From Bacillota bacterium (GTDB lineage Bacteria > Patescibacteriota > Patescibacteriia > Patescibacteriales > UBA12465): DNA of 64,000 nt. Positions 27,027 to 62,896 of this stretch are shown here, piece after piece (within the stretch, counting starts at the first letter, position 1; each line of letters opens with the position of its first letter). The notes beneath the pieces were generated by a model. The model was not told the DNA's origin. It made no database searches and saw only the letters and a list, made by a program, of their open reading frames with translations. Both the position numbers and the translations under genes were made by a program. The stretch spans positions 71,329 to 135,328 of the forward strand of contig JBLNBA010000001.1 in assembly GCA_050259635.1 (NCBI GenBank). The letters run 5' to 3'.

Positions 27027-27800
27027 ATGAAGACAAAAATAGTGATTTTAGCAGCTGGAAAAGGTACTAGAATGGGGTCTGATCTGCCCAAAGCCTTAGT
27101 GCCGGTAAGCGGCAGGCCGATGATTGCTCATCTGGCTGACTCAGTATCTGAATCTGGCCTGGATGATAAGCCGGTGGTCGTCGTATCTCCTGGCAATATG
27201 GAGGAGATCAAGGCAGCGATGAATGGTTATGATTGGAACTTTGTCATCCAAGAACAACAGCTCGGTACCGGCCATGCGGTGAATTCGGCTAGGAGCGCCA
27301 TTGGCGAAGCGGATCAGGTCTTGGTCCTTTACTGTGACCATCCTTTTGTCAGATCAGCGTCTATTAAGGCTATGGGCAGTGAGCCGACTGATTCCGTCCT
27401 GATCATGCCCGCACTACTTAACGATTTTGAAGGTTGGCGCCATAACTTTTTCCATTGGGGAAGGATAGTCCGCAATAACGTCGGCGGAGTAGAAAGGATA
27501 GTGGAGTTCAAGGACGCCTCTCCTGAAGAAATTGCGATTACCGAGGTAAACCCCGGCTTCATGTGTTTCAATAAAGAATGGCTGTTTTCAAACATCGATA
27601 AGCTCCATGATGATAACAACGCGCATGAATTTTATCTCACCGATATGGTTAAGATTGCTTTTAGCCAGGGGCACACTGTGAAAACTATCCCGGTGGAGGC
27701 TCATGAGGCCATGGGAATTAACAGCAAAGAAGAGCTGTTAATCGCGGAAACCATCATGGCTGAGCGTGAGAAGGAGATATTGCCAGAGGTGGCGGCATAA
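27027..27800 (+). CDS. sugar-1-phosphate nucleotidyltransferase, GlmU N-terminal-domain-like (no acetyltransferase domain)
   Basis: LAAGKGTRMGSDLPKAL signature. The protein ends before any left-handed beta-helix repeat. ATG 27027 is preferred over GTG 27009. Confidence 0.8.
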   Translation: MKTKIVILAAGKGTRMGSDLPKALVPVSGRPMIAHLADSVSESGLDDKPVVVVSPGNMEEIKAAMNGYDWNFVIQEQQLGTGHAVNSARSAIGEADQVLVLYCDHPFVRSASIKAMGSEPTDSVLIMPALLNDFEGWRHNFFHWGRIVRNNVGGVERIVEFKDASPEEIAITEVNPGFMCFNKEWLFSNIDKLHDDNNAHEFYLTDMVKIAFSQGHTVKTIPVEAHEAMGINSKEELLIAETIMAEREKEILPEVAA

Positions 27801-27801
27801 T

Positions 27802-29040
27802 ATGCGTATCCTTGATCTGCATATCCATTCCCGCTTTGCTCGCGCGTGTTCTCCTAAGTTAGATCTCGCCGGCATCGATTCAGCTTGTCGCGTAAAGGGT
27901 GTGGATGTCGTAGTGACAGGCGATTTTACCCATCCTGTTTGGTATAAGGAGCTCCGAGAGGAGTTGGAGCAGAAAAGAGACACCGGTTTGTATATACGAA
28001 AAGGTAGTGACGGCAAGACACTTTTCTTAATTGGAACCGAAGTCTCTCTTGTTTATCGAGACGGGGGTAAGGCCAGGAGGATCCATTTGGTCGTGCTTGC
28101 CCCGAATCTGGAAGCGGCAGCCTCATTGAATAACATCCTCGGCAAGCGGTTTAACCTCCGGGCGGATGGACGTCCAATTCTGGGGATAAGCGCACCGGAA
28201 TTCATCAGCCTTTGTCTGGATTTAAATCCCGCTTTCTTGATATATCCCGCACATATCTGGACTCCCTGGTATTCGGTATTAGGCTCAAAGTCCGGTTTTG
28301 ATTCCTTGGAAGAGTGCTTTAAGGAACAGACGGAAAACATTTATGCCTATGAGACCGGATTATCCAGTGATCCGCCGCTAAACTGGCGCGTGAGTGCCCT
28401 AGACGGTTTTTGCCGCTTATCTAATTCGGATGCTCATAGCCCCGAGAATATCGGCCGGGAAGCAAATGTTGTGAATTTGCAGGATCTGACTTATGAAGGC
28501 ATCTACCGGACTATACGCCATAATTTGATTTCAGAAAATGGGTCGGACGGTTTTGTGGAGACGATAGAGTTTTTTCCGGAAGAAGGGATGTATCATTGGG
28601 ATGGCCATCGCGACTGCGGTTTCTGCAGCCAGCCGGCAGAAAGCCGTCGGCTCGGGCAGATCTGCCCTCGTTGCGGGCGCCCTTTGGTGATCGGTGTCGC
28701 GAGTCGTGTCGCCGTCTTGGCTGATCGACCGGAGGGATACCGTCCAGAAAATGCTTTACCCTTTCGTTATTTATTAGGTTTAGACAAGGTGATAGCGGCA
28801 GCCTTAGGGGTCAAGGGTCGTTCGTCGTCGGCTGTAAAGCGTATATATGATAAGATGATAGAGGGGATAGGGCCGGAATTGTATATTCTCAGGCAGGGCG
28901 ACTTAACTCAAGTGGAGGCAATCCATCCGGCTACAGCCGTAGCCTTATCCGCCTTCAGAGCTGGTAAAATTGAACTACAGCCCGGGTTTGATGGACAATA
29001 TGGGAAAGTGAAGATAATCATTCCCACAGATCGTAAATAG
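27802..29040 (+). CDS. PHP-domain endonuclease, EndoQ-like
   Basis: N-terminus MRILDLHIHSRFARACSP...VVVTGDFTHPVWYKEL is a PHP metal site. An internal Cys4 zinc finger reads CGFCSQPAESRRLGQICPRCG. ATG lies 1 nt after the previous stop. Confidence 0.6.
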   Translation: MRILDLHIHSRFARACSPKLDLAGIDSACRVKGVDVVVTGDFTHPVWYKELREELEQKRDTGLYIRKGSDGKTLFLIGTEVSLVYRDGGKARRIHLVVLAPNLEAAASLNNILGKRFNLRADGRPILGISAPEFISLCLDLNPAFLIYPAHIWTPWYSVLGSKSGFDSLEECFKEQTENIYAYETGLSSDPPLNWRVSALDGFCRLSNSDAHSPENIGREANVVNLQDLTYEGIYRTIRHNLISENGSDGFVETIEFFPEEGMYHWDGHRDCGFCSQPAESRRLGQICPRCGRPLVIGVASRVAVLADRPEGYRPENALPFRYLLGLDKVIAAALGVKGRSSSAVKRIYDKMIEGIGPELYILRQGDLTQVEAIHPATAVALSAFRAGKIELQPGFDGQYGKVKIIIPTDRK

Positions 29041-29041
29041 T

Positions 29042-29506
29042 ATGCAGAAAACAATCTTCCAGATTCTTATTCTCGCAGCCTTTCTTTTCTTGGCTTCCTT
29101 TTCGGCTGTCTGGTTCGATGAAGAAAGTGGCCGCGAGGAAAATGCCTGGGCAGCCAAGACGGCGGGCGGTGCATCCCTTTTTATGGATGCCTTAGTACGG
29201 TTTTCTTCTCCCTCTTCCAATTCTTTTTCGACGGGTATTCGTTTAGAAGCCGATCAGGCTGCCGAAAGGCTGGAGGATATTGCCCAGGAAACACAGGAAG
29301 GAGTGGACTATGCGGTCGGTTCGGTCGGGGGGTCTGAAGGATTACAGTTGCCGCCGGCTCTGGGTTCTCCTGAGACCGGGTTTAAGAGTTTTCTCAGGGA
29401 TGTTTTGAGTGGTGCGCCCTCCCGTTATCTGGATATTCGCTTGTATAATCGCGGTTTAAAGGATTTCTTTTCCTTCTACTGGCTTGGCTTGACGGGTCGC
29501 GAATAA
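29042..29506 (+). CDS. hypothetical signal-anchored protein
   Basis: 154 aa with an N-terminal hydrophobic helix. Starts 1 nt after the EndoQ-like stop. No motif recognised. Confidence 0.45.
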   Translation: MQKTIFQILILAAFLFLASFSAVWFDEESGREENAWAAKTAGGASLFMDALVRFSSPSSNSFSTGIRLEADQAAERLEDIAQETQEGVDYAVGSVGGSEGLQLPPALGSPETGFKSFLRDVLSGAPSRYLDIRLYNRGLKDFFSFYWLGLTGRE

Positions 29507-30884: not shown

Positions 30885-31574
30885 ATGAAACAAAGAGTTC
30901 AAAAACGGGAACAAAGTTTCGGACAAGGGCTGGAACTAATTGACATCGCGGCAAAGGCAATTGCAACCGCCGCAAAAAACAGTGATGTGGAGTCAGATTT
31001 TATACAGAAAATCATAGGCAAACCACAAGCTATCTTCGACTTCTATAAAAAATTATTTAAAGGAGAAGAACCAGATGATCAATCTTCAGGGCAATTGATA
31101 TTAATGTCTCAGGGTGAATCTCCTTTAATAGAAGAATTAGATTGTTCAATGAGATTTTCTGCGGCTCACGAATTTCTTAGACCCTATGATGATGGCATAT
31201 ACGATAAATATAATTTGAACCATCCTGCTAAGAAGAAGACGCCGAAGACTTTCTGTGATGTTTACAAGACCACTTTTAGTAGCTCATACAGGCAGATATT
31301 CGCAACAATAAACGAAAATTTAGATAGGCTTGTTTTGAGTCAACATCAAATACTATGGTTTTGTCGAAAATATCCCTTCTGGCTCTTTCAGGGAGCGTCA
31401 GGTGATACCGCCTTCTTAATAAAAGTTCATAATGGTGGGTATCAAGTGGTTTGTGTCTCCAATCCAATAGCTTCTATCAGTGGGAGCGACAATGTTTATT
31501 GGTTTACAATACAGTCCTTAGAAAGAAATCCTGATTGTTTGTATAATCGCATCGTGGTGCCACAAATTAAGTAA
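30885..31574 (+). CDS. hypothetical protein (229 aa, orphan)
   Basis: Long ORF with its own promoter. AT-rich. No motif recognised. Confidence 0.5.
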   Translation: MKQRVQKREQSFGQGLELIDIAAKAIATAAKNSDVESDFIQKIIGKPQAIFDFYKKLFKGEEPDDQSSGQLILMSQGESPLIEELDCSMRFSAAHEFLRPYDDGIYDKYNLNHPAKKKTPKTFCDVYKTTFSSSYRQIFATINENLDRLVLSQHQILWFCRKYPFWLFQGASGDTAFLIKVHNGGYQVVCVSNPIASISGSDNVYWFTIQSLERNPDCLYNRIVVPQIK

Positions 31575-44277: not shown

Positions 44278-44350
44278 ACTGAATTTAGATAAATTAGGTA
44301 AATTATTAAAAGTAATCTTATGTTAGCACAAAACTAATTAAAAATCAAGG

Positions 44351-44424
44351 TCGGGGTGCCGGGACTTGAACCCGGAATCTCCTGCTCCCAAAGCAGGCGC
44401 CTTAGCCAATTAGGCCACACCCCG
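44351..44424 (-). tRNA. tRNA-Pro (anticodon TGG)
   Basis: Acceptor cggggtg/caccccg, anticodon stem cctgc/gcagg, loop ttTGGga. Confidence 0.85.
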
Positions 44425-44435
44425 TGGCATAAAAA

Positions 44436-44498
44436 ATTACGGATCAGGAAGTGTGAATTACGGCGAAATATCGTAATTCGTAATTCATGATCCGTAAT
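44436..44498 (-). other. long imperfect hairpin in the tRNA-Phe/tRNA-Pro spacer
   Basis: Outer 11-bp stem attacggatca/tgatccgtaat. The inner tgaattacg can pair with either copy of a tandem cgtaatt repeat. Confidence 0.6.
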
Positions 44499-44508
44499 CT
44501 TTGTTTTG

Positions 44509-44580
44509 TGCCCCGGGTCAGAATCGAACTGACGACACAAGGATTTTCAGTCCTTTGCTCTACCACTGAGCTACCGAGGC
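44509..44580 (-). tRNA. tRNA-Phe (anticodon GAA)
   Basis: Acceptor gcctcgg/ccggggc with one U:G pair, loop ctGAAaa. Confidence 0.85.
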
Positions 44581-44613
44581 CCAGTGAAATTTTTTTATCT
44601 CGGGCCGTTTTTG

Positions 44614-44686
44614 TTGCGGGAGCTGGATTCGAACCAGCGACCTCCAGGTTATGGGCCTGGCGAGCTGCCAACTGCTCTATCCCGCG
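44614..44686 (-). tRNA. initiator tRNA-fMet (anticodon CAT), atypical
   Basis: C1:A72 mismatch (cgcggga/tcccgca) and A11:U24. The anticodon stem ccagg/cctgg has only two G:C pairs next to the loop, and the loop reads ccCATaa. Confidence 0.8.
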
Positions 44687-44707
44687 ATCATGTCCTTCTT
44701 AGAAGGG

Positions 44708-44781
44708 TGGGCAATGGAGGATTCGAACCTCCGACCTCAACATTATCAGTGTTGCGCTCTAACCAACTGAGCTAATTGCCC
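44708..44781 (-). tRNA. tRNA-Ile (anticodon GAT)
   Basis: Acceptor gggcaat/attgccc, loop ctGATaa. Confidence 0.85.
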
Positions 44782-44886: not shown

Positions 44887-45855
44887 TCAGCTTAAAGAAG
44901 CGACAATCGCATATAGCTCGCTCTTGATTTCCGCCTTGCCCTGCTTGTTGCGGAAATCGAGATCCAAGAGGCCTTCTAACCCCTGTTTGAGCTCGGTTAA
45001 AGTGAAGCGGCTTCCTTGGGAAAGGCTCTTTTTGACGACAAATGGGTGAAGCTTGAGTTTAGAAGCTAGCTGGGCTTCGCTTAAGCGCCCCTCCGCTTGC
45101 AGGATTTTTAACTGGAGCATGATCTTAAACTGCCTTTGGAACATCGCGAGAAGGTATTCGGCGCTCAGGCCGGCAGCGAATTGTTCCTCTAAAAGTTGTA
45201 AGGCTGCGGCCCGGTTCCTGCTGCCCAGAGCATCGGTGAGGGCAAAGATGTTCTCCTCTGTTTCTCCTTTGACTAATTCCTCGACCAAGGCGTTGTCTAT
45301 ATTACTGCCGCCCGAGGCGGCAATGAGTTTCTTAATCTCATTATCTAATCTCCAGAGGTCGTTTTCGGTGCGGGAGATGAGGAGAGCGAGGGCGGAGGGG
45401 CTGATCCTTCCTCCTTTCGCGGCGATGGACTTTTTTGCAAAGTCCAAAACTTGGATGTTATTGAGAGGCTTGAACTCTTGGACGAAAGGCTGTTTTCCCA
45501 GCCAAGCGAAAAGCTTCTTGGCTTCCGCTTTGAGTTTGGTGGGGGAGATGTCGTTTTCGTTGAAGACGATGGCATTATCATCCGCGCCTGCCTGTTTCTG
45601 GCAGGTCTCGAGCAAGCCGGAGAAAAGAGCTTCATCTTTATTGGCGAAGGCATCCTCCAGGATTACCATCCGTTTGGCAGTGAAAAGCGAACCGCCAGCC
45701 ATTTTTTCCCTGATCTCCTTAGGCGATGCCTGTTTTGCGTCTACATACACTAAACTTTGGCCGAGCGGATCTACCGCGGCCATGAAACGGTCCTGTAATT
45801 CTTTCAATTTTTGTTTACGGCGGAATGAATCCGCGCCATAAAGGAGGAATATCAT
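44887..45855 (-). CDS. holA: DNA polymerase III delta subunit
   Basis: 322 aa with a delta-like N-terminus (IFLLYGADSFRRKQ) and an all-helical C-half. Overlaps the upstream gene by 4 nt. This is a weaker, pattern-based call. Confidence 0.65.
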   Translation of the reverse strand: MIFLLYGADSFRRKQKLKELQDRFMAAVDPLGQSLVYVDAKQASPKEIREKMAGGSLFTAKRMVILEDAFANKDEALFSGLLETCQKQAGADDNAIVFNENDISPTKLKAEAKKLFAWLGKQPFVQEFKPLNNIQVLDFAKKSIAAKGGRISPSALALLISRTENDLWRLDNEIKKLIAASGGSNIDNALVEELVKGETEENIFALTDALGSRNRAAALQLLEEQFAAGLSAEYLLAMFQRQFKIMLQLKILQAEGRLSEAQLASKLKLHPFVVKKSLSQGSRFTLTELKQGLEGLLDLDFRNKQGKAEIKSELYAIVASLS

Positions 45856-48416
45856 AGGCGTCCAAACTGTTTAACGTAGTTCTTAAAGAGGTCGCCTTTT
45901 TCCTTGTAGTCTTTCCAGAGGCTATAGCTCGGGGAGGCAGTGGAAAGAAGGCAGGCTTTTCCGGCGGGAGTCTGCTTAAAAGCGAAACGGACGGCTTCTT
46001 CCATTGAGGAGGTTTCCAGGATAGGCGGGAGATTATTTTTATAGGCGGTCATCAGAGCATCTTTGATCCGAGCGCCGCTATAAGGAAAGAGGATGATGGC
46101 ACTGAGCGGGAGCTGCGTCAGGCGTTTGGCCAGGGAAGAGAAATCATACCCGCGATCTTCTCCGCCGAGGAAGATGCAGCCGGTCTTTTCACCAAGATAA
46201 TCCAGTGCCGCCATCGTGGATTCCGGCGTGGTGGAGATGGCGTCATCATAGAAATCTATGCCTCGGTAACTGCCGATATTTTCCAAACGATGGGGCAAGC
46301 CCCTGAAGTTGGCAATTCCTTCCCTTATCGCTTTGTTTGCGATTTTCAATTCTTTGGCGACAGCGATGGCGGCTCCGATATTTTTGAGGTTGTGCTCTCC
46401 AGGCAGGCTGATATCAGCCTGTTCGATAATCTTTTTTCCGCCATAGAGGAGCCAGCCGTCTTTGGCCTCTACTTCCTGGTCATAAGGGAGGGCCTTAGCC
46501 TTATTGTGCTTGGCTAACTTATTCAGGAAAGGAAAGCTTGAGTTATATACGAAAACATCTCCTTCTTGTTGGAAGCGGGCGATATTGGCCTTGGCCTGCG
46601 CATAGTTGTCGAATCCTTGGTGGTAAGGGAGGTGATCAGGGAAGAGGCTGATGAAAACGGCGATGTGCGGGCTTTCTTCCAGAGTGGAGAGCTGGTAGCT
46701 GGAGAGTTCATAAACGAACCAAGCGTCTTCGCCGATCAGGTGGAGAGGGTCGGCACCGATGTTGCCCACCAGATAAGCCTTTTTTCCGGCCGCTTTAAGT
46801 ATCGAATAGATGAGAGAACTGGTAGTGCTTTTGCCTTTCGTCCCGGTGATGCCAATGATCCTATCGCGCTCATGGCGGAAGAAAATGCGGCTCACCGTTT
46901 CCATTTCAGCGCCTTTCTCCAAAGCTTCCTGCAGCTCCGGCGTTTCGGAGGAGATGCCGGGGCTTTTGGCTATGACATCGAAGAGGGTAAGAGATTCCAG
47001 GTAGTGCGGGCCGTCTTTCTTGTCGCGGAAGCTTATCACAGTCTTGGGATCAAGGCGTCGATAGTAGTCTGCTAAGTAATTACCCTCTTCCCCTCGCCCG
47101 AGGATGACGGTGGGCCGGAAGCTTGCGGGAACGGCGTGTTCTTTATTGACGGCGAAAGCCTGGGCGATGATTTTTTTCTTATCCTTAATCTTCGGGGCGA
47201 TTTTCTTTACGAAGTATTCCATTACCGGATCCTTATCATAACCTCGGTTGCGGGCCAGGAGAAGGGCTGCCTTCACTTCTTCCGGCGTCCCGACGCAATC
47301 AAAAGGCTTGATGCGCTTTTCTCCCCACAGCTCTTGGAAGAGCGGGAGCATCTCGGCTCGGAACATGTCTTTCCCGAAGATCTTTTTCAATTCATTTCTT
47401 GGCAAGAAGGCGGAAAGCAGGGAATAGGTGAAAGCGCATTTGGGACATTCGCCGCACCAGCGGGAGGCGGCTGCCTCCGTGATCCGGAAGTTGCGGTTGC
47501 AGCTGGAAAAAGCCGGTAGATATTTCTTGTGAGCGGAGAATTGGTAGGCGATACGGAGCTCGGTAAGAGGGCGGAGGATACTGAAGTATTCCAGTTTCTC
47601 CGCGACATTATCCTTGAGATAGGAGGCGAAGTCGCGCTCGAACTCAAAAGATTTGCTGTATTGATGGTTAATCTCTTCGCCAAGGTAACGGACATTGCCG
47701 AAGTTGGCGCTGGCTTCGTTCGCGAAAACTATATAGCGGTAGTCTTCAAGAGCGGCAGCGAGGACGCAGATCCAGGAGTAAAGGGCAGAAATCGGCACGT
47801 GGCCGTTATAGGCGCCTTGCTTGTTCAGTTCAAAAAGCAGGGGATCGATCTCCCGTCCGAAGACTAAGCGGGATTTGCCTGCCAGTTTAGCCGTGTCTGC
47901 TTGGATGCGGCTGTCTCTCAAGCTGATGAGAGTAAAGTCTTTCCCTGTCTGGCCCAACTTCTCGGCCGCCAGAAGGGAATCCTTTCCGCCGCCGATGGGA
48001 GAAAGGCAGCGGTCTTTGAAAGCCTTGTTGGAGACGGCAGGTTTATAACCGCGTTTATAAGGAAAGGAAACGAGGCCGCGGTAATCGATCTTATTGCGAT
48101 AGAAAAATTCTCCTAGGCCTTTCGTGTACAGTTTATTCCAGAAGGCCGCTTGCTTTTTGGATAGGACGCCGCTTCTGACCTCTATTTTCTTGGGGCAGAA
48201 GGCCTTGTAGTAGCCGATGCCGGCGGCGAGATGCAAGTTGAAGAGAATATTGTCCAAGAGCTTGCGATCTCCCTTGAAGGCGACGCCCTGGGGAAGAGTA
48301 ATCTGCTCGGTGAATCGTAAACCGGTATCGAAGGAATATGAAAACCGGACCAAGGAGTTTCCTTTATCGATCTCATAGCTCTCGAAGATGAATTTTTCCG
48401 GTTTCTTTAGTTTCAT
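45852..48416 (-). CDS. murD: fusion protein: N-terminal PP-loop ATPase-like domain (MurL-like?) + C-terminal UDP-MurNAc-L-Ala--Glu ligase MurD
   Basis: The C-half has the Mur ligase P-loop GITGTKGKST and GLPHRLE. The N-half (aa 1-~440) has the PP-loop SPIGGGKDS and CGECPKC and no Mur ligase similarity. Confidence 0.75.
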   Translation of the reverse strand: MKLKKPEKFIFESYEIDKGNSLVRFSYSFDTGLRFTEQITLPQGVAFKGDRKLLDNILFNLHLAAGIGYYKAFCPKKIEVRSGVLSKKQAAFWNKLYTKGLGEFFYRNKIDYRGLVSFPYKRGYKPAVSNKAFKDRCLSPIGGGKDSLLAAEKLGQTGKDFTLISLRDSRIQADTAKLAGKSRLVFGREIDPLLFELNKQGAYNGHVPISALYSWICVLAAALEDYRYIVFANEASANFGNVRYLGEEINHQYSKSFEFERDFASYLKDNVAEKLEYFSILRPLTELRIAYQFSAHKKYLPAFSSCNRNFRITEAAASRWCGECPKCAFTYSLLSAFLPRNELKKIFGKDMFRAEMLPLFQELWGEKRIKPFDCVGTPEEVKAALLLARNRGYDKDPVMEYFVKKIAPKIKDKKKIIAQAFAVNKEHAVPASFRPTVILGRGEEGNYLADYYRRLDPKTVISFRDKKDGPHYLESLTLFDVIAKSPGISSETPELQEALEKGAEMETVSRIFFRHERDRIIGITGTKGKSTTSSLIYSILKAAGKKAYLVGNIGADPLHLIGEDAWFVYELSSYQLSTLEESPHIAVFISLFPDHLPYHQGFDNYAQAKANIARFQQEGDVFVYNSSFPFLNKLAKHNKAKALPYDQEVEAKDGWLLYGGKKIIEQADISLPGEHNLKNIGAAIAVAKELKIANKAIREGIANFRGLPHRLENIGSYRGIDFYDDAISTTPESTMAALDYLGEKTGCIFLGGEDRGYDFSSLAKRLTQLPLSAIILFPYSGARIKDALMTAYKNNLPPILETSSMEEAVRFAFKQTPAGKACLLSTASPSYSLWKDYKEKGDLFKNYVKQFGRL

Positions 48417-48417: not shown

Positions 48418-51177
48418 TTATTTCAGCTCGCCCCAATTATCTCCGGATGAAGCCTCCACAAGGACCGGTACGGATAAAGGCAGAGCGGACTCCATCAGTT
48501 CTTTTATCTTGGGAGCGTGCTTGTCCAGCTTATCCGCTTTCACTTCGAAAATCAATTCGTCATGGACTTGGAGCAGCAAGCGGATTTCATCCTGCTTCCC
48601 TTTGAGATAGGAGGCGATATCCAACATGGCTTTCTTGATCATATCGGCGGCCGTCCCTTGGAGAGGCGTATTTATTGCCATGCGTTCCGCGGTGCGCCTC
48701 ACCTGGGGTATCGTGGACTCCAGTTCGGGTAGGGGGCGGCGGCGATTGAAGATGGTCTCGGCATATCCTTTTTCGCGGGCGAGGGCGATGAAGCGGTCCA
48801 TCATCTTCTTCACCCCGGGATAGACTTTGAGATAACGGTCAATGAATTCCTTGGCTTCGCCATAGCTTATGCCGGCGGCTTCGCTTAGTCCGTGCGGACC
48901 TTGGCCATAGATGATCCCGAAGTTCGTGGCCTTGGCCGCTCGGCGCATATTCTTGGTCACGTCCTCTGGCTTGATGCCCTTTATCGCTGCTGCCGTAATT
49001 GTATGGATATCATCTCCGTCCTTGAAAGCTTTAGCCATGCGTTTGTCCTTGGAGAAATGAGCAGCTAAGCGTAGCTCGATCTGGGAGTAGTCGAAGCTGA
49101 TAAGCTTGTATCCTTTTTCTGATATGAAAGCCTTGCGGATCTCGCGCCCTTCCTCGGTCCGGGTAGGGATATTTTGCAGATTGGGTTCCATGGACGACAG
49201 CCGGCCGGTGGCAGCGATGGTTTGGTTATAGGTAGTATGGATGCGCCCGTCCGCGGGATCGATCAGGGAAGGCAAGGCCTGGATATAGGTGCTCTGGAGC
49301 TTGCTCAGCTCTCGGTAGCGCTGGATGACGGGGATGATGGGGTGGGATCCTTTCAGTTTTTCCAGTTCTTCGTCGGCCGTGGACAGTCCGGTCTTGGTCT
49401 TGCGCAGTCCTTTCACCTCCAAGCCCAGCTTGGTGAATAGGATCCCTTGGAGCTGCTTCGGGGAATTAATATTGAACTCTTCGCCGGCGAGCGAATATGC
49501 TTCCGCAATAAGCTCTTGCAGCTTGGTGCTAAATTCCTTTTCCATATCTTCCAGCGCCCCTCCATCCAGCTTGATGCCGAGGTCTTCCATGTCTGCCAGG
49601 ACATAGGAGAGAGGAAGTTCCAGGTCTTTTGCCAGAGCGTCTAACTTCGCTTCTTTGAGGTCTTTGGTCAAGATGCTTTCTAACTGGAAAATACAATCCG
49701 CGTTTTCGCCGGAATAGAGACGGAGGATATCGGTGGGGATGTCTTTTAATCTTTTTGCCTCTTTCCCTTTGCCGGTTATTTCCGGAAGGCTGATTTTTTC
49801 GTATTTGAGATCCCTGAAAGCGAGTACGTCCAGGTTATGTTGGCGGTTGTCCGGTTGCAGGAGATATGACGCCAGCAGGGAATCGAAGACGATCCCATGG
49901 AGCTCAATACCTTGTCCTCTCAAGGCTCGGATGGCGAACTTGAGATTGTGCCCGTATTTCTTTATGCCCGGGTTTTCCAGGATACCCTTGAAAGCCGATA
50001 GGTTGGACTTGCCGAAAGAAAATAAATCGTTAGCAGAGGAGAGTTTTAGGCAGAAAGCTTCTCCCTCTTTGAAGCAGAAGGAAATCATCAGGGCTTCCGC
50101 ATGCATGGGGTCCTCACCTTCGGTTTCTAGGCTGAAAGCGAAGGCTTTCCGCTTTTCCAATTTTGAAATCAAGCCGGCAATATCCTTGTTTTCCACCAAC
50201 TGGTAACGCTTCTGCCGGTTGCGCTCGAACTTATCCGTATGTTCGATGAGAGAAGGTTTTGCTTCCCCTACTTCTTGATGGAGATTTTTCACTTGTTCCA
50301 GCTTGCCGATAAGGGTGCGGAATTCCAAGTCATAGAAAAGTTCGATCGCTTTTTTTTCATCGAAGGAATCCAAGCGTAAGGCAGGCCAACTGATATCAAT
50401 CGGGGCCTTGCAGTCTATGGTAGCTAATCGGCGGCTCATGTAGGCGCTATCTTTTCCGGTTTTGAGGAGTTCCAAGATGCGCGGTTTTATAGCGGGGTCT
50501 TCCTTGGCAACGGCTTCATATACCCCATCTAAGGTCGTATAGCGCTGTAATAATTCAGTTGCCCCTTTTTCGCCGATCCCCCGGACGCCCGGGATATTGT
50601 CGCTGGCATCGCCGCGGATCGCCTTATAGTCTATCACCTGGGAGGGCTCGATCCCGTATTTAGCTTTCACAACCTCAGGGGTATAAAGGACGCTTTCCGA
50701 AAGGCCACGGCTCATGGCATAGACGCTAGTCCGCTCGTTTACCAATTGTAAAGTATCCATATCGCCGGTAATAACGATGCTGTGCCAGTCCGTGTCGGTT
50801 GCTGCCTGCCGGGCGATGGTGCCGATAAGGTCGTCCGCTTCATAGCCGTCCAGTTCAAAAATGGGCATATCAAGGGCTTCTGCCACTTGGCGGGCAATCG
50901 GGAACTGCTCAAAAAGCCCATCTGGCGCCTTATGCCTAGTGGCTTTGTACTCCGTATATTCTAAGTGGCGGAAAGTAGGGGCGGGGCGATCGAAGGTAAG
51001 AACGGCAAATTCTGGCTTAAGTTCGATAAAAGCTTTGAGAATGAAAGAGGTGAAACCATAGACCGCATTAACCTGCCTGCCGTCTTTGGTGGTGAGAGTG
51101 GGTGGGAGGGCATGGAAACTACGGTGAATAAGGGCGTTTCCGTCGATAATAACGAATTTGGGAGCATTTTTCTTCAT
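48418..51177 (-). CDS. polA: DNA polymerase I
   Basis: 5' nuclease domain, middle exo-like domain, and pol motifs DYSQIELR, RRAAKATNFGIIYG and QVHDELIFE. 919 aa. Confidence 0.95.
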   Translation of the reverse strand: MKKNAPKFVIIDGNALIHRSFHALPPTLTTKDGRQVNAVYGFTSFILKAFIELKPEFAVLTFDRPAPTFRHLEYTEYKATRHKAPDGLFEQFPIARQVAEALDMPIFELDGYEADDLIGTIARQAATDTDWHSIVITGDMDTLQLVNERTSVYAMSRGLSESVLYTPEVVKAKYGIEPSQVIDYKAIRGDASDNIPGVRGIGEKGATELLQRYTTLDGVYEAVAKEDPAIKPRILELLKTGKDSAYMSRRLATIDCKAPIDISWPALRLDSFDEKKAIELFYDLEFRTLIGKLEQVKNLHQEVGEAKPSLIEHTDKFERNRQKRYQLVENKDIAGLISKLEKRKAFAFSLETEGEDPMHAEALMISFCFKEGEAFCLKLSSANDLFSFGKSNLSAFKGILENPGIKKYGHNLKFAIRALRGQGIELHGIVFDSLLASYLLQPDNRQHNLDVLAFRDLKYEKISLPEITGKGKEAKRLKDIPTDILRLYSGENADCIFQLESILTKDLKEAKLDALAKDLELPLSYVLADMEDLGIKLDGGALEDMEKEFSTKLQELIAEAYSLAGEEFNINSPKQLQGILFTKLGLEVKGLRKTKTGLSTADEELEKLKGSHPIIPVIQRYRELSKLQSTYIQALPSLIDPADGRIHTTYNQTIAATGRLSSMEPNLQNIPTRTEEGREIRKAFISEKGYKLISFDYSQIELRLAAHFSKDKRMAKAFKDGDDIHTITAAAIKGIKPEDVTKNMRRAAKATNFGIIYGQGPHGLSEAAGISYGEAKEFIDRYLKVYPGVKKMMDRFIALAREKGYAETIFNRRRPLPELESTIPQVRRTAERMAINTPLQGTAADMIKKAMLDIASYLKGKQDEIRLLLQVHDELIFEVKADKLDKHAPKIKELMESALPLSVPVLVEASSGDNWGELK

Positions 51178-51183: not shown

Positions 51184-51213
51184 ATTTTAGCACGGGTAAT
51201 AAACAATAGGCAA
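51184..51213 (-). promoter_or_regulatory. sigma70-type promoter placed for a leaderless polA mRNA
   Basis: On minus: TTGCCT, 18 nt spacer, TAAAAT, then only 6 nt (gtcctc) before the polA ATG. Confidence 0.45.
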
Positions 51214-51225
51214 AAGCCATATTTT

Positions 51226-51253
51226 AAAAAAATCCTGCTTTTTTTAAGCAGGA
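51226..51253 (-). terminator. intrinsic terminator (minus strand) upstream of the polA promoter
   Basis: On minus: tcctgct-loop-agcagga followed by TTTTTTT. Confidence 0.65.
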
Positions 51254-51566
51254 CTGAAGCGTTTTTAGCTTCACTTGGTGATACCGTTAGCGGTTTGTGT
51301 CGGGAAAGGAAGATTTCTTCTGCTCCTGACGATTTGGTTGAGGTTTTTAATACCTTTTTTAAGTTTGGAACCTTTTTTGTTGCCCGAGCGCTTACTCGTA
51401 ATAAGTAATAGTGTTGCCTCAGGCAAAGTGCACATTTCCCCGGTTATTCCGGGCACCCCTGTCTGTGTCATGATCTGATGTTTATAAAACCATGTTGTCA
51501 ATTATTTTAAGCGGTGTCAAGCTTAATGTATTACCGGGAAAGTGCTATTTTATATTTATTGCGGGC

Positions 51567-52715: not shown

Positions 52716-52721
52716 TTTTTG

Positions 52722-52794
52722 TGGACTCTAGGGGATTCGAACCCCTGACCCTCTGCTTGCAAAGCAGATGCTCTACCAGCTGAGCTAAGAGCCC
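52722..52794 (-). tRNA. tRNA-Ala (anticodon TGC)
   Basis: Acceptor gggctct/agagtcc with the G3:U70 identity pair, loop ttTGCaa. Confidence 0.9.
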
Positions 52795-55905: not shown

Positions 55906-56859
55906 TTAATTTCCGGGTACGATAACAGGGAATGGCTTCGATCCTTCGTATGCTTTATAGCCGTAGTCCGTGCAGAAGTTCTTGATGTGCTTGCCGAAGT
56001 AGTCCGGCTTCCCGTCTTGGATAAGCCCGATAAGGAAATATCCCACAGACATCATCCAGGCGATGCCGGCAGATCTAGGAACGTTGATTTCCAGGCGGCT
56101 TTTCTGGTGTCCAAAGTATTCGTTCTTGCCGAAGCTGATTACCAGTTCATCTTTTTCCCGGACAACGAATTTTGCATGTCTGGCCTCGCCGAAAGTGCAG
56201 GCGCGCAGAGAAACATTAGGTCCGAAGAGCTCATTGCGCTTTATTTCTAGCATAGGGGCGATAGATCCGAATTCGTCCGGGACAATGAAAGAGTATGCGC
56301 GATATTTCTTGAAGTTGAATGGTAATTTGAGTTTAAGAATCGAGGCAGCGATATCGCCAGGTTTTTCTTTACTTGAGGCTATGAGCATGCCGAGATAGGT
56401 GGAAACGTTGTAGGTGTATGGTTCCGCCAGTTTGCGGAAGAAATGAGATTCATCGGCAAGCTTTGCGGCGGTTGATTCCGGTGAGCAGGTGAGCAGAACG
56501 GTTTTTAGCCCGACTTTTTTGGTGGCCTTTATTTCCCAGACCGAATCCTTCTCGCCGGAGGCGGAGATGACAACAGCGTGTGTGATGTCTTTATGGGCGA
56601 TGAGGCTGCGGTAATCTTTAAGCTGGCGGCGGAAATTGCTTTCATTGGCAAATATGGCTTTACGTCCAGAAAACATCGCAAGACCGGCGTTTATCGCATT
56701 GCCGCTGCCAACGACGATCGGAAAGGAGTATTTCTTCAGGTCTAAGGCAACCGGCCTGTTCGCTTTAAAAAAATCCAGTGCTTTCAGAACGCTTAGATTA
56801 AGAGTCTCGAGCTTATGCTTCTCCATAATATTTTTCCCTAATTTTATTGATGTTTCCAT
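55906..56859 (-). CDS. SIS-domain-like protein (possible sugar-phosphate isomerase)
   Basis: PIVVGSGNAINAGLAM and VVISASGEKDSVWEIKATKKVGLKTVLLT resemble the SIS phosphosugar-binding fold. The call is tentative. Confidence 0.4.
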   Translation of the reverse strand: METSIKLGKNIMEKHKLETLNLSVLKALDFFKANRPVALDLKKYSFPIVVGSGNAINAGLAMFSGRKAIFANESNFRRQLKDYRSLIAHKDITHAVVISASGEKDSVWEIKATKKVGLKTVLLTCSPESTAAKLADESHFFRKLAEPYTYNVSTYLGMLIASSKEKPGDIAASILKLKLPFNFKKYRAYSFIVPDEFGSIAPMLEIKRNELFGPNVSLRACTFGEARHAKFVVREKDELVISFGKNEYFGHQKSRLEINVPRSAGIAWMMSVGYFLIGLIQDGKPDYFGKHIKNFCTDYGYKAYEGSKPFPVIVPGN

Positions 56860-58196: not shown

Positions 58197-59666
58197 ATGG
58201 CCAAGGCCTTAAAGATAGTACATATCGCCTCGGAAGCTGCCCCTTTTTCTAAGACGGGCGGCCTAGGTGACGTGGCTCGTAGTTTGCCTAAGGCGCAAAA
58301 GCGCTTGGGTCATGATGTCTGCTTGATTACGCCGCTATATGCCAAGGCGGTGGACAAGAAAGAACATCATCTCAAGCTTCTTTTCGCGGACGTGAAACTC
58401 AGATTGAATTCGACGGAGACGATCAGCGTAAATTTTTGGCAAGGGCAGCTTATGGAAGATTTACCTGCTTATTTCGTGGAATGTCCAAAATATTTTTCCA
58501 AGCACAAGCGATTATATGGTTCAAGCCATGAAAACGCCCGCTTCTTGGTATTCAGCGTGGCCTCTTTAAAACTTTTGTCACTGATCAAGTTCAAGGCGGA
58601 CATCGTCCATTGCCATGATTGGCAGACCGGTCTCATTCCGTATTATCTGAAACATGACTTCCGTTATTCTAAGACCTTGAAAGATGCTAAGAGCGTCTTT
58701 ACCATCCATAACCTTATATTCCAACTGGGGCATAATTGGTGGGAAATACCGCCGGAGAGGAAAGATTATGGCCGGGGGTCTATTCCACATCTGAGCGATC
58801 CTAAGCTGGAGGATATTAACTTTGCTAAACGCGGCATATTATCAGCCGATATCATAAATACCGTGAGCGAGCAATATCGCTCGGAAATCATGACCAAGAA
58901 ATTCGGTCAGGATTTGCATCGTATCTTGCGCAACCGTTCCGATCGTCTTTTCGGTATCGTTAACGGCATCGACTACAATGCTTATAATCCTGAAAAAGAT
59001 GAACTATTAGTTCAGCGTTATAGCGCCAGATCATTAGGGAAACGTTTGTCCGCCAAGAAGGCGAACAAAGTCGCTTTCCAAAAGAAGGTCGGCTTGCCGC
59101 AGGAAGCTCTTACCCCCATGCTCTGTACTACTTCCCGGGTGACTTTCCAAAAAGGATTCAGTCTCATCCTTGAAATCATGCCGGCTCTCTTGCGCCTTGA
59201 TGCCCAGTTTGTCTTTATGGGTGACGGTAGCAAGGAATATATCCAGCCGCTTAAGAAGTTGCAGAAAAAATTCGGCCGCAAACTCATCTGGCTGCCTTTT
59301 GACGAGAAATTGGAAACCGCCCTATACGCCGCTTCCGACCTATTCCTTTTGCCTTCCAATCATGAACCTTGCGGTATTAACCAGCTTATCGCCATGCGTT
59401 ATGGCTGTATTCCGGTTGTCCGAGAGATCGGAGGCTTATATGACACGGTGGAGGATTATAATCCGGCAACCGGCCGGGGTAATGGTTTTACCTTTGATGA
59501 AGAGCATGGTTTGGAATTCTTCGGAGCGATTATCCGAGCTTTAGAAAATTACCAGCATCGCCCTTCCTGGGAGGCTTTAGTCCGACAGGTAATGGAACAG
59601 TCTAACAGCTGGGAGATCCCGGCTAAGAAATATATCCAGCTCTATCGCCGGGTAAAGAAATTATGA
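58197..59666 (+). CDS. glgA: glycogen/starch synthase (GT5)
   Basis: N-terminal SEAAPFSKTGGLGDV motif. 489 aa. Confidence 0.9.
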   Translation: MAKALKIVHIASEAAPFSKTGGLGDVARSLPKAQKRLGHDVCLITPLYAKAVDKKEHHLKLLFADVKLRLNSTETISVNFWQGQLMEDLPAYFVECPKYFSKHKRLYGSSHENARFLVFSVASLKLLSLIKFKADIVHCHDWQTGLIPYYLKHDFRYSKTLKDAKSVFTIHNLIFQLGHNWWEIPPERKDYGRGSIPHLSDPKLEDINFAKRGILSADIINTVSEQYRSEIMTKKFGQDLHRILRNRSDRLFGIVNGIDYNAYNPEKDELLVQRYSARSLGKRLSAKKANKVAFQKKVGLPQEALTPMLCTTSRVTFQKGFSLILEIMPALLRLDAQFVFMGDGSKEYIQPLKKLQKKFGRKLIWLPFDEKLETALYAASDLFLLPSNHEPCGINQLIAMRYGCIPVVREIGGLYDTVEDYNPATGRGNGFTFDEEHGLEFFGAIIRALENYQHRPSWEALVRQVMEQSNSWEIPAKKYIQLYRRVKKL

Positions 59667-60808
59667 ATCTCCTTTGGATAAATTTCATTCATCTATATCA
59701 ACCGGCGAACAGTCCGGCGGAACGCATCGCGGAAGCGGTCGAGAAGAGCTATCTTCGCCTGACCCGTCTTTTAGAAGAACATCCCAATTTACATTTCACT
59801 GCCAATATCAGCGGCTGCCTCTTGGAAAGGCTCAATGAAGGGGGCTATGGCACTTTGCTTGAGCGCTGGAAGAAATTGATTGCGGACGGACGCTTGGAGA
59901 TCGTTGGTTCTGCGGCTTACCATGGATTTCTGCCTTTGCTTCCGGAAAGCGAAGTGCGCTACCAAATTAGGCGCCAAGAGGAAATCGTCAAGGAATTGTT
60001 GGGGGCAGATATCAGGAAGGGCGGATTTTTCCTGCCTGAGATGGCATATTCTTCGGAACTGGGTAAATTACTTGCTTCACTCGGTTACCGTTGGCTGATC
60101 CTAGATGCAGCATGTTTGCCAAAGGAGGCGCCGAAAGAGGAAATTTTTAAAGATCGCGATAGCGGCTTGATTGCCGTTATCCGGCAAAGGGAATATTCCA
60201 ATTCCTATGCCCCTGATCTTGTCGGAAGACTCTTGAAGGAGGGGAAGGCGCCGGAGTTGATGGTAACAGCTACGGACGCTGAGCTTTATGGCTTGAGACA
60301 CGAGGACCCTACGGCCGAACTTGAGAAGATGGCCGCTTTACCGCAGTTGAATACGGACACTATCAGCAATTTCCTAAAAGGGAAGGACGTGCCGGAGACA
60401 AAATTGCTTCCAGGAACTTGGGAGACGGATCGGCAGATTGATCGGAAGAATCCCTACGCCATTTGGGATGGCAACGGCCTGCAACACGATCTCTGGCGTT
60501 TAGCCGGAATCGCCCTGAAGGCCGGGAAGCGTTATGGGGCGGATGAGAACTTTTCCGCCTATCGCTGGCATTTGGATCGAGGATTGGCGAGCTGCATGTT
60601 CTGGTGGGCAAGCGGGCGGGATTTTTTCCACAGCATGGGACCGGTAGCCTGGAGCCCAGACGAGATCGAAGCGGGCCTTAACGATCTTGTCCGCTCGGTG
60701 AGATCGTTAAAGCATCCAGAGAGCCGCAAAGTAAAGCTGGCGACAGAAAGGATGGCGACACGTATCCGGGGAAAAATTTGGAGATTACATTGGCAAAAGC
60801 ATTTTTGA
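59663..60808 (+). CDS. glycoside hydrolase family 57 protein (short form)
   Basis: INFIHLYQP start, nucleophile region FFLPEMAY and acid/base region TATDAELYG. ATGA overlap with glgA. Confidence 0.65.
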   Translation: MNLLWINFIHLYQPANSPAERIAEAVEKSYLRLTRLLEEHPNLHFTANISGCLLERLNEGGYGTLLERWKKLIADGRLEIVGSAAYHGFLPLLPESEVRYQIRRQEEIVKELLGADIRKGGFFLPEMAYSSELGKLLASLGYRWLILDAACLPKEAPKEEIFKDRDSGLIAVIRQREYSNSYAPDLVGRLLKEGKAPELMVTATDAELYGLRHEDPTAELEKMAALPQLNTDTISNFLKGKDVPETKLLPGTWETDRQIDRKNPYAIWDGNGLQHDLWRLAGIALKAGKRYGADENFSAYRWHLDRGLASCMFWWASGRDFFHSMGPVAWSPDEIEAGLNDLVRSVRSLKHPESRKVKLATERMATRIRGKIWRLHWQKHF

Positions 60809-60819
60809 AATATCTATCT

Positions 60820-61869
60820 ATGAACAAGATCCTTGCGCTTTTCCAGGAGGAGGAAGTCCAAGCGCTGTTAGAAAGAGAACTGGCAAAGTCTCATCCGGAG
60901 ATCAAGCGGATTTTCGGGCTTGAGATCATGCCCTTTAAGAAGAATGTTTGGGAGACCACCTATCACGTAGTGATCGCTTACCACTTTTCCTATGCGACGG
61001 ACGAAGGCAGGGATGGGCGGATGATGGTCATATGTTCTGCCCACAGCGAAGAGCCAAGGGATAAGGCTTATGCCGTTTTGCAATACCTATGGAATAGTGA
61101 CCTGAATAAAGCGGAATACGGCGTGGCCCTGCCTGAGCCCCTTTTTTATTCCTCTGAGTATCGCGGCTTCTTCTACCGGGCAGTGGAAGGAAAAGATTTG
61201 CTTTATTTCATCAAGAAGGATGATCGTCCATCTGTGGAAGATTATCTGCGCCGGACCGCGGTATTATTTTCTCTTCTCCACGCTTTGCCCATTCCGGCCG
61301 ATACGGGGATCTTTAGTATGGATAATCGCCGTTTGGAAACCGTCGTTCCCGGGAGAACGCGGGCCATTGCGGAGATCAGGAAACGTTATCCGAAGGAAAG
61401 TTACGCCGATGATTTGGATGCTTTTTATACCCGCTGCGAAGCGGAAGAGGATAGCTTCTTTTCATCAACCGAAAAACGCTGGCTTATCCACGGTGATGCC
61501 CATCCTGAGAATATCATTGCCGCCGGTGATAGGATCGGACTCATCGATTTTACTGATTTTTGTCCGGCAGACTTTGCCCGTGACCTTGGCGCCTTCATGC
61601 AGCAGGTCGAGTATAAGATTATCCGCAATCTGGGAGACGAAGGATATGGAAAGCGGATGAAACATCTCTTTCTGGAATCATATTTGCAGGCTTCCGGCCT
61701 GGTATTCGATGACGTTCTGCAAAGGAGGCTTGATACTTATTTTTATTTTACCGCTTCAAGGAGCGCCTGTTTTTGGCTTTTAAAATATAATAGTGAGCCT
61801 CAGAAAGCGGCCGCCGCCATTGAACGGCTCAAAGCCAGGCTGGCCGCGGGAATGCATGCTCAGGATTGA
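60820..61869 (+). CDS. APH/choline-kinase-fold phosphotransferase
   Basis: Catalytic loop LIHGDAHPENII and metal-binding GLIDFTDF. ATG 60820 is preferred. Confidence 0.7.
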   Translation: MNKILALFQEEEVQALLERELAKSHPEIKRIFGLEIMPFKKNVWETTYHVVIAYHFSYATDEGRDGRMMVICSAHSEEPRDKAYAVLQYLWNSDLNKAEYGVALPEPLFYSSEYRGFFYRAVEGKDLLYFIKKDDRPSVEDYLRRTAVLFSLLHALPIPADTGIFSMDNRRLETVVPGRTRAIAEIRKRYPKESYADDLDAFYTRCEAEEDSFFSSTEKRWLIHGDAHPENIIAAGDRIGLIDFTDFCPADFARDLGAFMQQVEYKIIRNLGDEGYGKRMKHLFLESYLQASGLVFDDVLQRRLDTYFYFTASRSACFWLLKYNSEPQKAAAAIERLKARLAAGMHAQD

Positions 61870-61870
61870 T

Positions 61871-62896
61871 ATGAAGATCGCTCATATCCATGTCTGGGAT
61901 AAGACTAATAAAGGTGACTTAGGGATAGTCTTAGCTGTGCAAGAGATCTTGCTTTCACGCTTCCCGGGCGTGATCATTGAGGATTTTCCTATTGAAGTAC
62001 TCAAGGAGTATGACAAGGGGGAGGCAGAGCGTCTTAATTCCGCCGACCTTATCATCATGGGAGGGGGTGGCTTGTTCTATCGCTATTTCCTGCCTTTCAG
62101 CTCGCAGATGATTGCCGCTCTGCATAAGCCGTTCGTAATCTTCGGTGTGGGCTATATCCGGGAAGTCGGCGCTCCGGCCCTGACAAGGACCGAGCGGGAC
62201 TCTATTATCGCCCTTGCGGAGCGTGCAGACCTGCTGGGCGTGCGTGAGAATTACACGAAGCGCTTTTTGGTAAAATATGGCTTGCCGTCAGAGAAGGTAA
62301 AGGTTATCGGAGACCCAGCCTTGCTTCTCTCCGAGAGTGAAGGCGCGGCTTTGTCCGCCGGAGTAAAGATCGGTTTCAATCTGAATTATTCTGGTTGGCT
62401 TGGTTTCGGCTCCTGGCGTGATGATATCCTAGATGCCTATCGTGAGACCGCGCAATATTTTCAGCAGAAGTATGGTGCGAACATATATTATCTGAAACAT
62501 CATCCGGGCGAGGACAAGATTTATCCGGAACTGGGAATTAACAACTTGACAGTGATCGACGAAGAGCCGCATAAGCAAAAAGGGCAGTATGGCAAGTTGG
62601 ATTTAGTAATCGGGATGATGCTCCATTCCTGTGTCATGGCCGCGGGCGCGCTTACGCCGGAAATCAATGTCGCGTATGATCTTCGCAACCGAAATTTCGC
62701 GCGTTTCTTGGGGATCCCGGAAGCCATTGTGGAACTGCCGCAACTGAGAGGCGGGGTACTTCTAAAACGAGCTAAGCATTTTTATAGCCATCAGGAGGAA
62801 TATCGCCGGAAGCTAGAAGTTTTTAAGCGGCAAGTCACTCGGCGCACCTCCGGTTTCTTGGACGAAATTCAAGAAATCTGCAAAGAAAAAATATGA
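61871..62896 (+). CDS. polysaccharide pyruvyl transferase family protein
   Basis: N-terminal NKGDLGI, then IIMGGGGLF, GVRENYT and VIGDPALL, the PS_pyruv_trans pattern. ATG lies 1 nt after the previous stop. Confidence 0.6.
   Translation: MKIAHIHVWDKTNKGDLGIVLAVQEILLSRFPGVIIEDFPIEVLKEYDKGEAERLNSADLIIMGGGGLFYRYFLPFSSQMIAALHKPFVIFGVGYIREVGAPALTRTERDSIIALAERADLLGVRENYTKRFLVKYGLPSEKVKVIGDPALLLSESEGAALSAGVKIGFNLNYSGWLGFGSWRDDILDAYRETAQYFQQKYGANIYYLKHHPGEDKIYPELGINNLTVIDEEPHKQKGQYGKLDLVIGMMLHSCVMAAGALTPEINVAYDLRNRNFARFLGIPEAIVELPQLRGGVLLKRAKHFYSHQEEYRRKLEVFKRQVTRRTSGFLDEIQEICKEKI

Follow-up and report, generated by a model that had tools for sequence, protein, structure and literature searches.

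We describe here a murL-murD2 fusion gene in a 64,000-nucleotide stretch of DNA, referred to below as the window, that covers positions 71,329 to 135,328 of contig JBLNBA010000001.1 in a metagenome-assembled genome (MAG) deposited at NCBI under the name "Bacillota bacterium" (GCA_050259635.1). The gene lies on the minus strand at positions 45852 to 48416, between polA (48418 to 51177, minus strand; 919 amino acids [aa]) upstream and holA, encoding DNA polymerase III delta (44887 to 45855, minus strand; 322 aa), downstream. According to the list of open reading frames (ORFs), it begins with an ATG and continues for 854 codons plus a TGA stop codon in one uninterrupted frame. The TAA stop codon of polA ends at 48418 and is followed by a single T and then by the fusion ATG at 48416, while the TGA stop codon of the fusion (45854 to 45852) overlaps the ATG of holA (45855 to 45853) by 4 nucleotides (nt), as ATGA. 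Both the 1-nt gap and the ATGA overlap had been reported in an earlier interpretation of this DNA made from the sequence alone (the sequence-only reading), and the sequence bears them out.

The same reading had taken the 854-aa ORF for two enzymes in one chain, and family searches agreed. NCBIfam model NF041275 (MurL_Xanthmoales, UDP-N-acetyl-alpha-D-muramoyl-L-alanyl-L-glutamate epimerase) matched aa 7 to 435 over model positions 8 to 441 of 447, with an E value of 1.5e-118 and a score of 396 bits, and NCBIfam model TIGR01087 (murD) matched aa 470 to 849 with 301 bits, above its cutoff of 212. We accordingly divided the protein into a MurL module (aa 1 to 435; 47112 to 48416, minus strand) and a MurD2-type ligase module with N-terminal, central, and C-terminal domains (aa 436 to 854; 45855 to 47111, minus strand). 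An AlphaFold2 (AF2) model of the full-length fusion had a predicted local distance difference test score (pLDDT) of 93.8 and a predicted template modeling score (pTM) of 0.86. The motifs SPIGGGKDS, CGECPKC (within WCGECPKC, aa 320 to 327), GITGTKGKST, and GLPHRLE (aa 706 to 712) were all found where the sequence-only reading had placed them.

Further sequence comparisons indicate that the N-terminal half is homologous to MurL, as had been guessed for aa 1 to 440. PF26299 (MurL_N) and PF26298 (MurL_epimerase_C) are among the precomputed Pfam matches of the exact protein and are found in its homologues too; our local copy of Pfam, which omits these two families, gave no match in aa 1 to 440. Over about 430 residues, the N-terminal half was 36 to 39% identical to Xanthomonadales MurL, with E values of 1e-81 to 1e-86. 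The MurL sequences used in this comparison came from Rhodanobacter, Dyella, Frateuria, Pseudoxanthomonas, and Lysobacter, which published work lists among the genera that have the pathway; those of Xanthomonas oryzae itself were not in the set. We also sampled free murL genes, that is, genes not fused to a ligase, by scanning GTDB species genomes with a MurL alignment, which yielded 80 loci. Forty-nine positions proved to be at least 97% conserved both in 69 free MurL proteins and in the MurL halves of 74 fusions, and the window protein keeps all 49.

When we compared the N-terminal half with PDB sequences, there was no match, and the MurL profile reached PP-loop segments only, from which it follows that the PDB holds no MurL structure. 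In these profile alignments, the MurL motif lvPiGGGKDSlvt aligned to LVAVSGGKDSAVT of TtuA with an E value of 5e-4 and also aligned to MJ0690 and MnmA. An AlphaFold model of the N-terminal half, built from an 18-sequence alignment, had a pLDDT of 91.7 and a pTM of 0.92, and its best PDB matches in Foldseek were QatC, QueC, Cap9, TtuA, MnmA, argininosuccinate synthase, and ThiI, all of which are PP-loop ATP pyrophosphatases. The Foldseek probability was 0.97 to 1.0 for QueC, QatC, Cap9, TtuA (three of five chains), MnmA, and argininosuccinate synthase, and Bacillus subtilis QueC aligned with the model over 214 columns with a template modeling (TM) score, on the target, of 0.67. This structure search, which the sequence-only reading had suggested as a check, thus identified the core of the N-terminal half as a QueC-like PP-loop fold. 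The PP-loop signature that it had picked out is genuine, given the fold match and the alignment of GGGKDS to SGGKDS of TtuA, and the MurL half belongs to the PP-loop ATP pyrophosphatase superfamily (adenine nucleotide alpha hydrolases). The loop itself, SPIGGGKDS (aa 139 to 147; 47976 to 48002, minus strand), is predicted to bind the alpha and beta phosphates of ATP for adenylation. Residues G143, G144, K145, and S147 were invariant in the 74 fusions, and G142 to S147 reached 97% conservation or more in both the fused and the free MurL sets.

The CGECPKC cysteine pair singled out earlier is present, but it is only part of a four-cysteine motif, C306-x14-C321-x2-C324-x2-C327 (47436 to 47507, minus strand), which reads SSC306NRNF...WC321GEC324PKC327. 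Its cysteines did not vary in fused MurL, and in free MurL they were conserved to at least 97%. By motif inspection, E. coli QueC carries an analogous motif, TCYNGFKGDGCGHCAAC, and from this resemblance the MurL cysteines may form a QueC-like zinc site. The correspondence rests on Foldseek and motif inspection, since an hhalign comparison of the MurL profile with E. coli QueC covered just 34 columns, those of the PP-loop (probability, 4%). Searches of Pfam and NCBIfam at E values up to 1 gave no QueC family match for the protein. Conservation of at least 97% in both MurL sets was also seen for several other groups of residues, namely, H206/P208, N233/E234, N250-H251-Q252-x-S254-K255, and K370, P371, F372, C374, V375, and G376. 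The last group makes up the KPFDCVG motif (47289 to 47309, minus strand), in which C374, the fifth conserved cysteine, is a candidate catalytic base or acid.

MurL and the QueC-like proteins, among which QatC and Cap9 belong to antiphage systems, thus have in common a core alpha/beta fold, a GGKDS PP-loop, and a C-terminal C...CxxCxxC arrangement. They differ in that there is no family-level sequence match and only the PP-loop aligns, and MurL has additional N-terminal (aa 1 to 130) and C-terminal helical (aa 340 to 435) regions that QueC lacks. They also differ in their reactions, MurL acting on a UDP-muramyl dipeptide with inversion at C-alpha and the QueC group forming amides or nitriles. 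The chemistry that MurL would share with QueC, TtuA, MnmA, and argininosuccinate synthase is adenylation of a carboxylate with release of AMP. Published reviews describe MurL as an enzyme that uses ATP, yields AMP, acts in the L-to-D direction only, and has none of the conserved domains known so far, and the published proposal is that the terminal L-Glu is adenylated at its alpha-carboxylate, the residue inverted, and the adenylate then hydrolyzed. The adenylating fold of the N-terminal half fits this AMP-forming reaction.

The C-terminal half contains the Pfam domains Mur_ligase_M and Mur_ligase_C, and Foldseek aligned the full-length AF2 model with ligand-bound E. coli MurD (PDB 2jfg and 1uag) at a TM score of 0.85 over about 440 columns, which implies that all three ligase domains are present. 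The equivalents of E. coli MurD catalytic residues K115, E157, H183, K198 (the carbamylated lysine), N268, N271, R302, D317, T321, and S415 are retained. The ATP-binding P-loop, GITGTKGKST (aa 522 to 531; 46824 to 46853, minus strand), includes K529, which corresponds to K115 and was invariant. The ligase half is 31 to 35% identical to the MurD2 proteins of Xanthomonadales.

Mutagenesis of X. oryzae MurD2 has identified Glu197 and Arg358, which correspond to D182 and K348 of E. coli MurD, as determinants of L-Glu use; Pro433 and Phe435 further differ from E. coli A414 and L416, the E197D change altered the stereospecificity of X. oryzae MurD2, and the K319T variant of E. coli MurD gained the use of L-Glu (PMC8788868). 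We examined these positions in the window protein, in the 74 fusions, and in a set of 41 free MurD2 proteins, which were the products of MurD-like genes taken from downstream of free murL. The Xanthomonadales MurD2 proteins showed E, R, P, and F at the published positions, and Ile in place of K319, which validated our residue alignment. At the K348 position, the window protein has Arg755, within GGEDRGYDF (46140 to 46166, minus strand), and Arg was found in all 74 fusions and in 41/41 free MurD2 proteins. At the positions of A414 and L416, it has Pro829 and Tyr831, within STASPSYS (45921 to 45944, minus strand). Pro was present at the former in all 74 fusions and in 40 of the 41 free proteins, and the latter was aromatic throughout the fusions (Tyr in 72, Phe in 2) and was Phe in 27 and Tyr in 13 of the free proteins. 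K319 is replaced by Ile727 in DDAISTTPES (46218 to 46247, minus strand), a form of the MurD2-type DSI(S/A)TTP motif, so that DSKAT of E. coli reads DAIST here; the fusions had Ile (68), Asn (5), or Leu (1) at this site, and the free proteins had Ile (40) or Leu (1). The corresponding motifs of canonical MurD proteins in the PDB are DSK(A/S/G)T and SP..AS(L/F/W)D. Four of the five MurD2 signature residues are therefore found in the window protein. The exception is Asp594, which, together with His595, occupies the D182-H183 positions in PDHLPYH (46620 to 46640, minus strand). This site was Asp in 44 fusions, Glu in 29, and Gly in 1, and in free MurD2 it was Glu in 40 and Asp in 1.

Phylogeny, another check put forward in the sequence-only reading, agreed with the signature residues in grouping the ligase half with MurD2 and not with canonical MurD. 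In a neighbor-joining tree of 42 sequences and 400 columns, the five canonical MurD proteins were split from all fused and free MurD2 proteins with a bootstrap value of 90. The fusions were monophyletic (bootstrap, 93), were nested within MurD2, and were sister to the free MurD2 of one Peribacteraceae genome. On the weight of this evidence, the ligase half would add L-Glu, although Asp594 leaves room for a relaxed Glu specificity and calls for caution about strictly L-Glu use.

In X. oryzae, MurD2 and MurL constitute an alternative branch in the synthesis of peptidoglycan precursors (for reviews, see PMC8788868 and PMC5808125). The window protein has the same two families in the same order, with an end-to-end MurL match, the conserved residues of MurL, and the Arg, Pro, aromatic, and Ile signatures of MurD2. 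It differs in that the Xanthomonas enzymes are separate proteins, whereas here they form one polypeptide with practically no linker in a Patescibacteria MAG. We conclude, with a probability of about 0.78, that the gene encodes a bifunctional MurL-MurD2 enzyme and is a variant, in its architecture, of a pathway that is known but has been little studied, in a phylum from which it had not been reported. A MurL-like N-terminal half and a MurD2-type C-terminal half in one bifunctional chain had been the central guess of the sequence-only reading, and it is supported.

If so, the ligase half would add L-glutamate and the ATP-using epimerase half would then turn it into D-glutamate. The MurL module (aa 1 to 435) would bind the ligase product, and its GGGKDS PP-loop would adenylate the alpha-carboxylate of the terminal L-Glu, converting ATP to AMP and pyrophosphate. 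In the activated residue, the more acidic C-alpha proton could then be exchanged; we suggest Cys374 and His251 as candidate acid/base groups for this proton transfer, and an oxazolone intermediate would be chemically plausible. D-Glu for the wall would thus be made from L-Glu on the nucleotide precursor at the cost of two ATP and without a pool of free D-Glu, and the cell probably needs no free D-glutamate. Both activities, with the stereochemistry predicted from the homologies above, would reside in one rigidly joined chain, and the intermediate may be channeled between the MurL and MurD2 modules. Such channeling and a cell that does without glutamate racemase, both put forward in the sequence-only reading, are less firmly supported than its assignment of the two modules. 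No other Mur ligase was found among the 40 window ORFs of at least 150 aa.

Several observations weigh against this interpretation. The MurL score of 396 bits falls short of 700, the equivalog cutoff that NCBI set for Xanthomonadales. Asp594 is the canonical MurD residue at the site where X. oryzae MurD2 has Glu197, yet Asp is also what 44 of the 74 MurL-joined fusions carry. Arg at the K348 position is not diagnostic in isolation, as the canonical MurD of Streptococcus agalactiae has it too. The tree contained only five canonical MurD proteins and was built by neighbor joining. Finally, there was no match to Asp_Glu_race (murI) or Aminotran_4, but this absence was checked only in the 64-kb window, among its 40 ORFs of at least 150 aa.

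Some of these points would also fit a different arrangement, in which a canonical or dual-specificity D-Glu ligase makes up the C-terminal half, the MurL half only corrects precursors to which L-Glu was added in error, and most of the D-Glu is supplied by a racemase whose gene lies elsewhere in the genome. Residue 594 is Asp, as at D182 of E. coli MurD, and not the Glu of characterized MurD2, the single E197D change was enough to alter the stereospecificity of the X. oryzae enzyme (PMC8788868), the TIGR01087 murD score is above its cutoff, and murI was sought in 64 kb and not in the whole genome. Yet R755, P829, Y831, and I727 are all of the MurD2 type, and the tree places the ligase half inside MurD2. 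Moreover, with Glu at the D182 site in 29 of the 74 fusions, Asp and Glu alternate within a single clade, in which MurL is always attached. For mere repair, a fusion that is permanent and conserved would be costly in streamlined genomes, and the 64 kb that were searched contained no match to murI or to a D-amino acid aminotransferase. We consider this arrangement unlikely, with something like one chance in eight, and retain the bifunctional MurL-MurD2 enzyme as the preferred interpretation.

It is more improbable still that the N-terminal half adenylates its substrate for another outcome, such as amidation of the Glu alpha-carboxylate to give iso-glutamine, in place of epimerization. QueC adenylates a carboxylate and traps the adenylate with ammonia, and the QueC-like fold and cysteine motif, along with a MurL score under the equivalog cutoff, might be read in this way. 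However, the window protein keeps 49/49 of the residues conserved in the clade of characterized-type MurL and matches MurL over its whole length, in the N- and C-terminal regions specific to MurL as well, and neither Pfam nor NCBIfam assigned it to a QueC family. Its partner is an L-Glu-type ligase, the product of which would still have to be inverted before MurE could use it.

An origin of the fusion in faulty assembly or in a frameshift that merged two adjacent genes can be dismissed for practical purposes: the source is a MAG, and murL and murD2 are usually adjacent in this order, so that a single-base error could merge them, but full-length homologues, a conserved junction, and a second assembly all say otherwise. 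Full-length homologues in Patescibacteria number more than 120, and the best 120 database matches were all 808 to 952 aa long, with 96 to 100% coverage and 41 to 65% identity. They came from four collections (NCBI, JGI, ENA, and Logan), and the named ones were from Patescibacteria (Falkowbacteria, Moranbacteria, and Parcubacteria). In Logan, a contig from an independent assembly encodes the identical protein, again 1 nt from polA and overlapping holA by 4 nt. The two modules are joined practically without a linker, ...HAVPASFRPT leading directly into VILGRGEEG, which forms the first strand and the GxGxxG of the ligase N-terminal domain. Junction residues P430, F433, L439, G440, G442, E444, and G445 were at least 90% conserved, and the pLDDT of the full-length AF2 model was 90 to 94 across the junction. 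The sequence-only reading had named an artefact as one way in which it could fail, and on this count the fusion stands.

We ran a MurL profile against 1.84 billion cluster representatives (clusters at 50% identity) and recovered 3551 MurL clusters at E values up to 1e-3 and 1615 at E values up to 1e-30. Among the best 150 clusters were 21 full-length fusions and 2 truncated fusions, most of the others being free proteins of 400 to 480 aa. Two of the 21 fusions had the reverse order, MurD and then MurL (P0262, 835 aa; P0266, 878 aa), which implies that these two enzymes have been fused in at least two independent events. The P0262 cluster includes Pacebacteria sequences, and P0266 is encoded at L088:5001-7637 on a 1.19-Mb contig.

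In the free state, too, the two genes are neighbors. Directly downstream of free murL, 73 of the 80 loci had a MurD-like gene, which in 72 was encoded on the same strand. X. oryzae likewise has murL and then murD2, as XOO_1319 followed by XOO_1320 (PMC8788868), and the order within the window fusion, MurL and then MurD2, matches both. Loss of one stop codon between adjacent murL and murD2 genes would give the window fusion. In addition to the five genera above, the GTDB scan found free murL in Solirubrobacterales/Thermoleophilia, many Alphaproteobacteria, Sericytochromatia, Peribacteraceae, and other groups. Free murL-murD2 pairs were also seen in Myxococcaceae and in a MAG labeled "Dichelobacter nodosus." In our literature search, we found no mention of a MurL-MurD2 fusion or of MurL in the candidate phyla radiation (CPR)/Patescibacteria.

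Covalent fusions of consecutive or cooperating cytoplasmic peptidoglycan enzymes have precedents in MurC-Ddl (NF011171) and MurE-MurF (NF008896), both of them NCBIfam families. Those proteins join two ATP-grasp- or Mur-type ligases, whereas the window protein joins a Mur ligase to a PP-loop epimerase that would replace the racemase step. Compared with E. coli MurD, it shares the three-domain fold, the P-loop, the catalytic residues, and Asp at the D182 position; it differs by carrying a 435-aa MurL module at its N terminus, by its place in the tree apart from the canonical proteins, and by the replacement of K348, A414, L416, and K319 with Arg, Pro, Tyr, and Ile, respectively.

The literature treats the MurD2/MurL route as limited to a few genera (Xanthomonadales, some Alphaproteobacteria, and rare actinomycetes) and has promoted it as a narrow-spectrum drug target. 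At 3551 clusters, the MurL family is much larger than the published list, and many of its named loci are from Patescibacteria. That the enzymes are often joined in Patescibacteria, and in either order, lends "Rosetta-stone" support to the biochemical pairing established in Xanthomonas, and the fusion offers a single protein in which the coupling or channeling of the two steps could be studied. It would also explain how streamlined genomes could build D-Glu-containing walls without a racemase. In annotation, the fused proteins are systematically mislabeled as plain, D-glutamate-adding MurD. The assignment of a QueC-like PP-loop and a four-cysteine motif gives the ATP-dependent, one-way epimerization by MurL a concrete and testable basis.

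A broader proposal, to which we give somewhat less than an even chance, is that MurL-MurD2, fused or split, is the sole source of wall D-Glu in a large share of the peptidoglycan-making Patescibacteria. It holds further that the fused form channels the L-Glu intermediate, without ever letting it go, at the expense of two ATP and that MurL is a QueC-derived zinc and PP-loop enzyme that inverts C-alpha on an acyl-adenylate. If true, this would amount to a third, widespread mechanistic class of D-Glu supply that extends beyond the genera in the literature.

The position of the gene between polA and holA had led the sequence-only reading to propose a cell wall enzyme embedded in a replication operon. 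The junctions are as it described, but the functional meaning that it attached to them does not stand, since the overlap is clade specific. The arrangement polA ... murL-murD2 - holA ... rpsT - (rpsO) - NYN - PNPase was common to relatives at 53 to 55% identity. The 4-nt overlap with holA was also present in related loci L002, L083, and L087 and was kept only in the Falkowbacteria-like clade, and the 1-nt junction with polA was found only in this organism; in L002 and L083, polA lay 400 to 600 nt away, with an ORF on the opposite strand in between. More distant fusions had unrelated neighbors. Because the polA/holA synteny is clade specific and distant fusions differ, we rejected a functional link to replication; the context is lineage synteny in compact genomes.

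Upstream of polA, a consensus scan picked out a terminator-like hairpin (51255 to 51231) followed by a promoter-like site (51213 to 51184), both on the minus strand, and a polA-murLD-holA transcript starting within 51184 to 51255 is possible; matches of either kind were no more frequent in the scan than expected from shuffled sequence. Between holA and rpsT, in line with polA-murLD-holA, lies a four-gene tRNA array (Pro, Phe, Met, and Ile; 44349 to 44781, minus strand).

Two Moranbacteria-like loci have an Amidohydro_3 protein of 512 to 523 aa encoded directly upstream of the fusion on the same strand (L084:2254-3825 and L085:2344-3882), and a functional tie between the two proteins is possible in those genomes. 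At one of these two loci, murA and mreB lie 2 to 4 kb downstream. Close upstream of the fusion in the Moranbacteria MAG of L084 are a bAvd-like gene and a reverse transcriptase (RVT_1) gene (L084:701-2112), which look like a diversity-generating retroelement.

With regard to the host, the RecA protein encoded in the window was 83 to 89% identical to proteins of Falkowbacteria, Parcubacteria, or Patescibacteria, none of them named Bacillota. Judging by RecA, the relatives of the fusion, synteny, and rRNA layout, the NCBI label "Bacillota bacterium" is probably wrong, and the organism is probably a Falkowbacteria-like member of the Patescibacteria. The 23S (21690 to 24700) and 5S (24746 to 24860) rRNA genes have no 16S rRNA gene upstream, the preceding gene encoding a PilT/T2SSE-type ATPase, and the genes for tRNA-Ile(GAT) (44706 to 44781) and tRNA-Ala(TGC) (52721 to 52794) both lie away from them. 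The missing 16S rRNA gene and the location of these two tRNA genes elsewhere indicate that the rRNA operon is unlinked.

Six ORFs of 154 to 424 aa elsewhere in the window had no Pfam match at E values up to 0.001 (27766 to 29040, 55906 to 56859, 30885 to 31574, 26398 to 26910, 29042 to 29506, and 6339 to 6854). A stretch at 58197 to 62896 encodes a glycogen/starch synthase (GT5), a GH57 glycoside hydrolase, an APH-type kinase, and a polysaccharide pyruvyl transferase, and an H+-pyrophosphatase is encoded at 4305 to 6293. The smpB gene (8288 to 8752) is followed after 5 nt by the gene for transfer-messenger RNA (tmRNA; 8757 to 9145), the predicted tag peptide of which, AKNTARAFTWNVPSFAPVMA, ends in VMA. 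The TTG start listed for a NUDIX ORF (9312 to 9899) overlaps a tRNA-Gly gene (9314 to 9386), and the true start of this ORF is probably further downstream.

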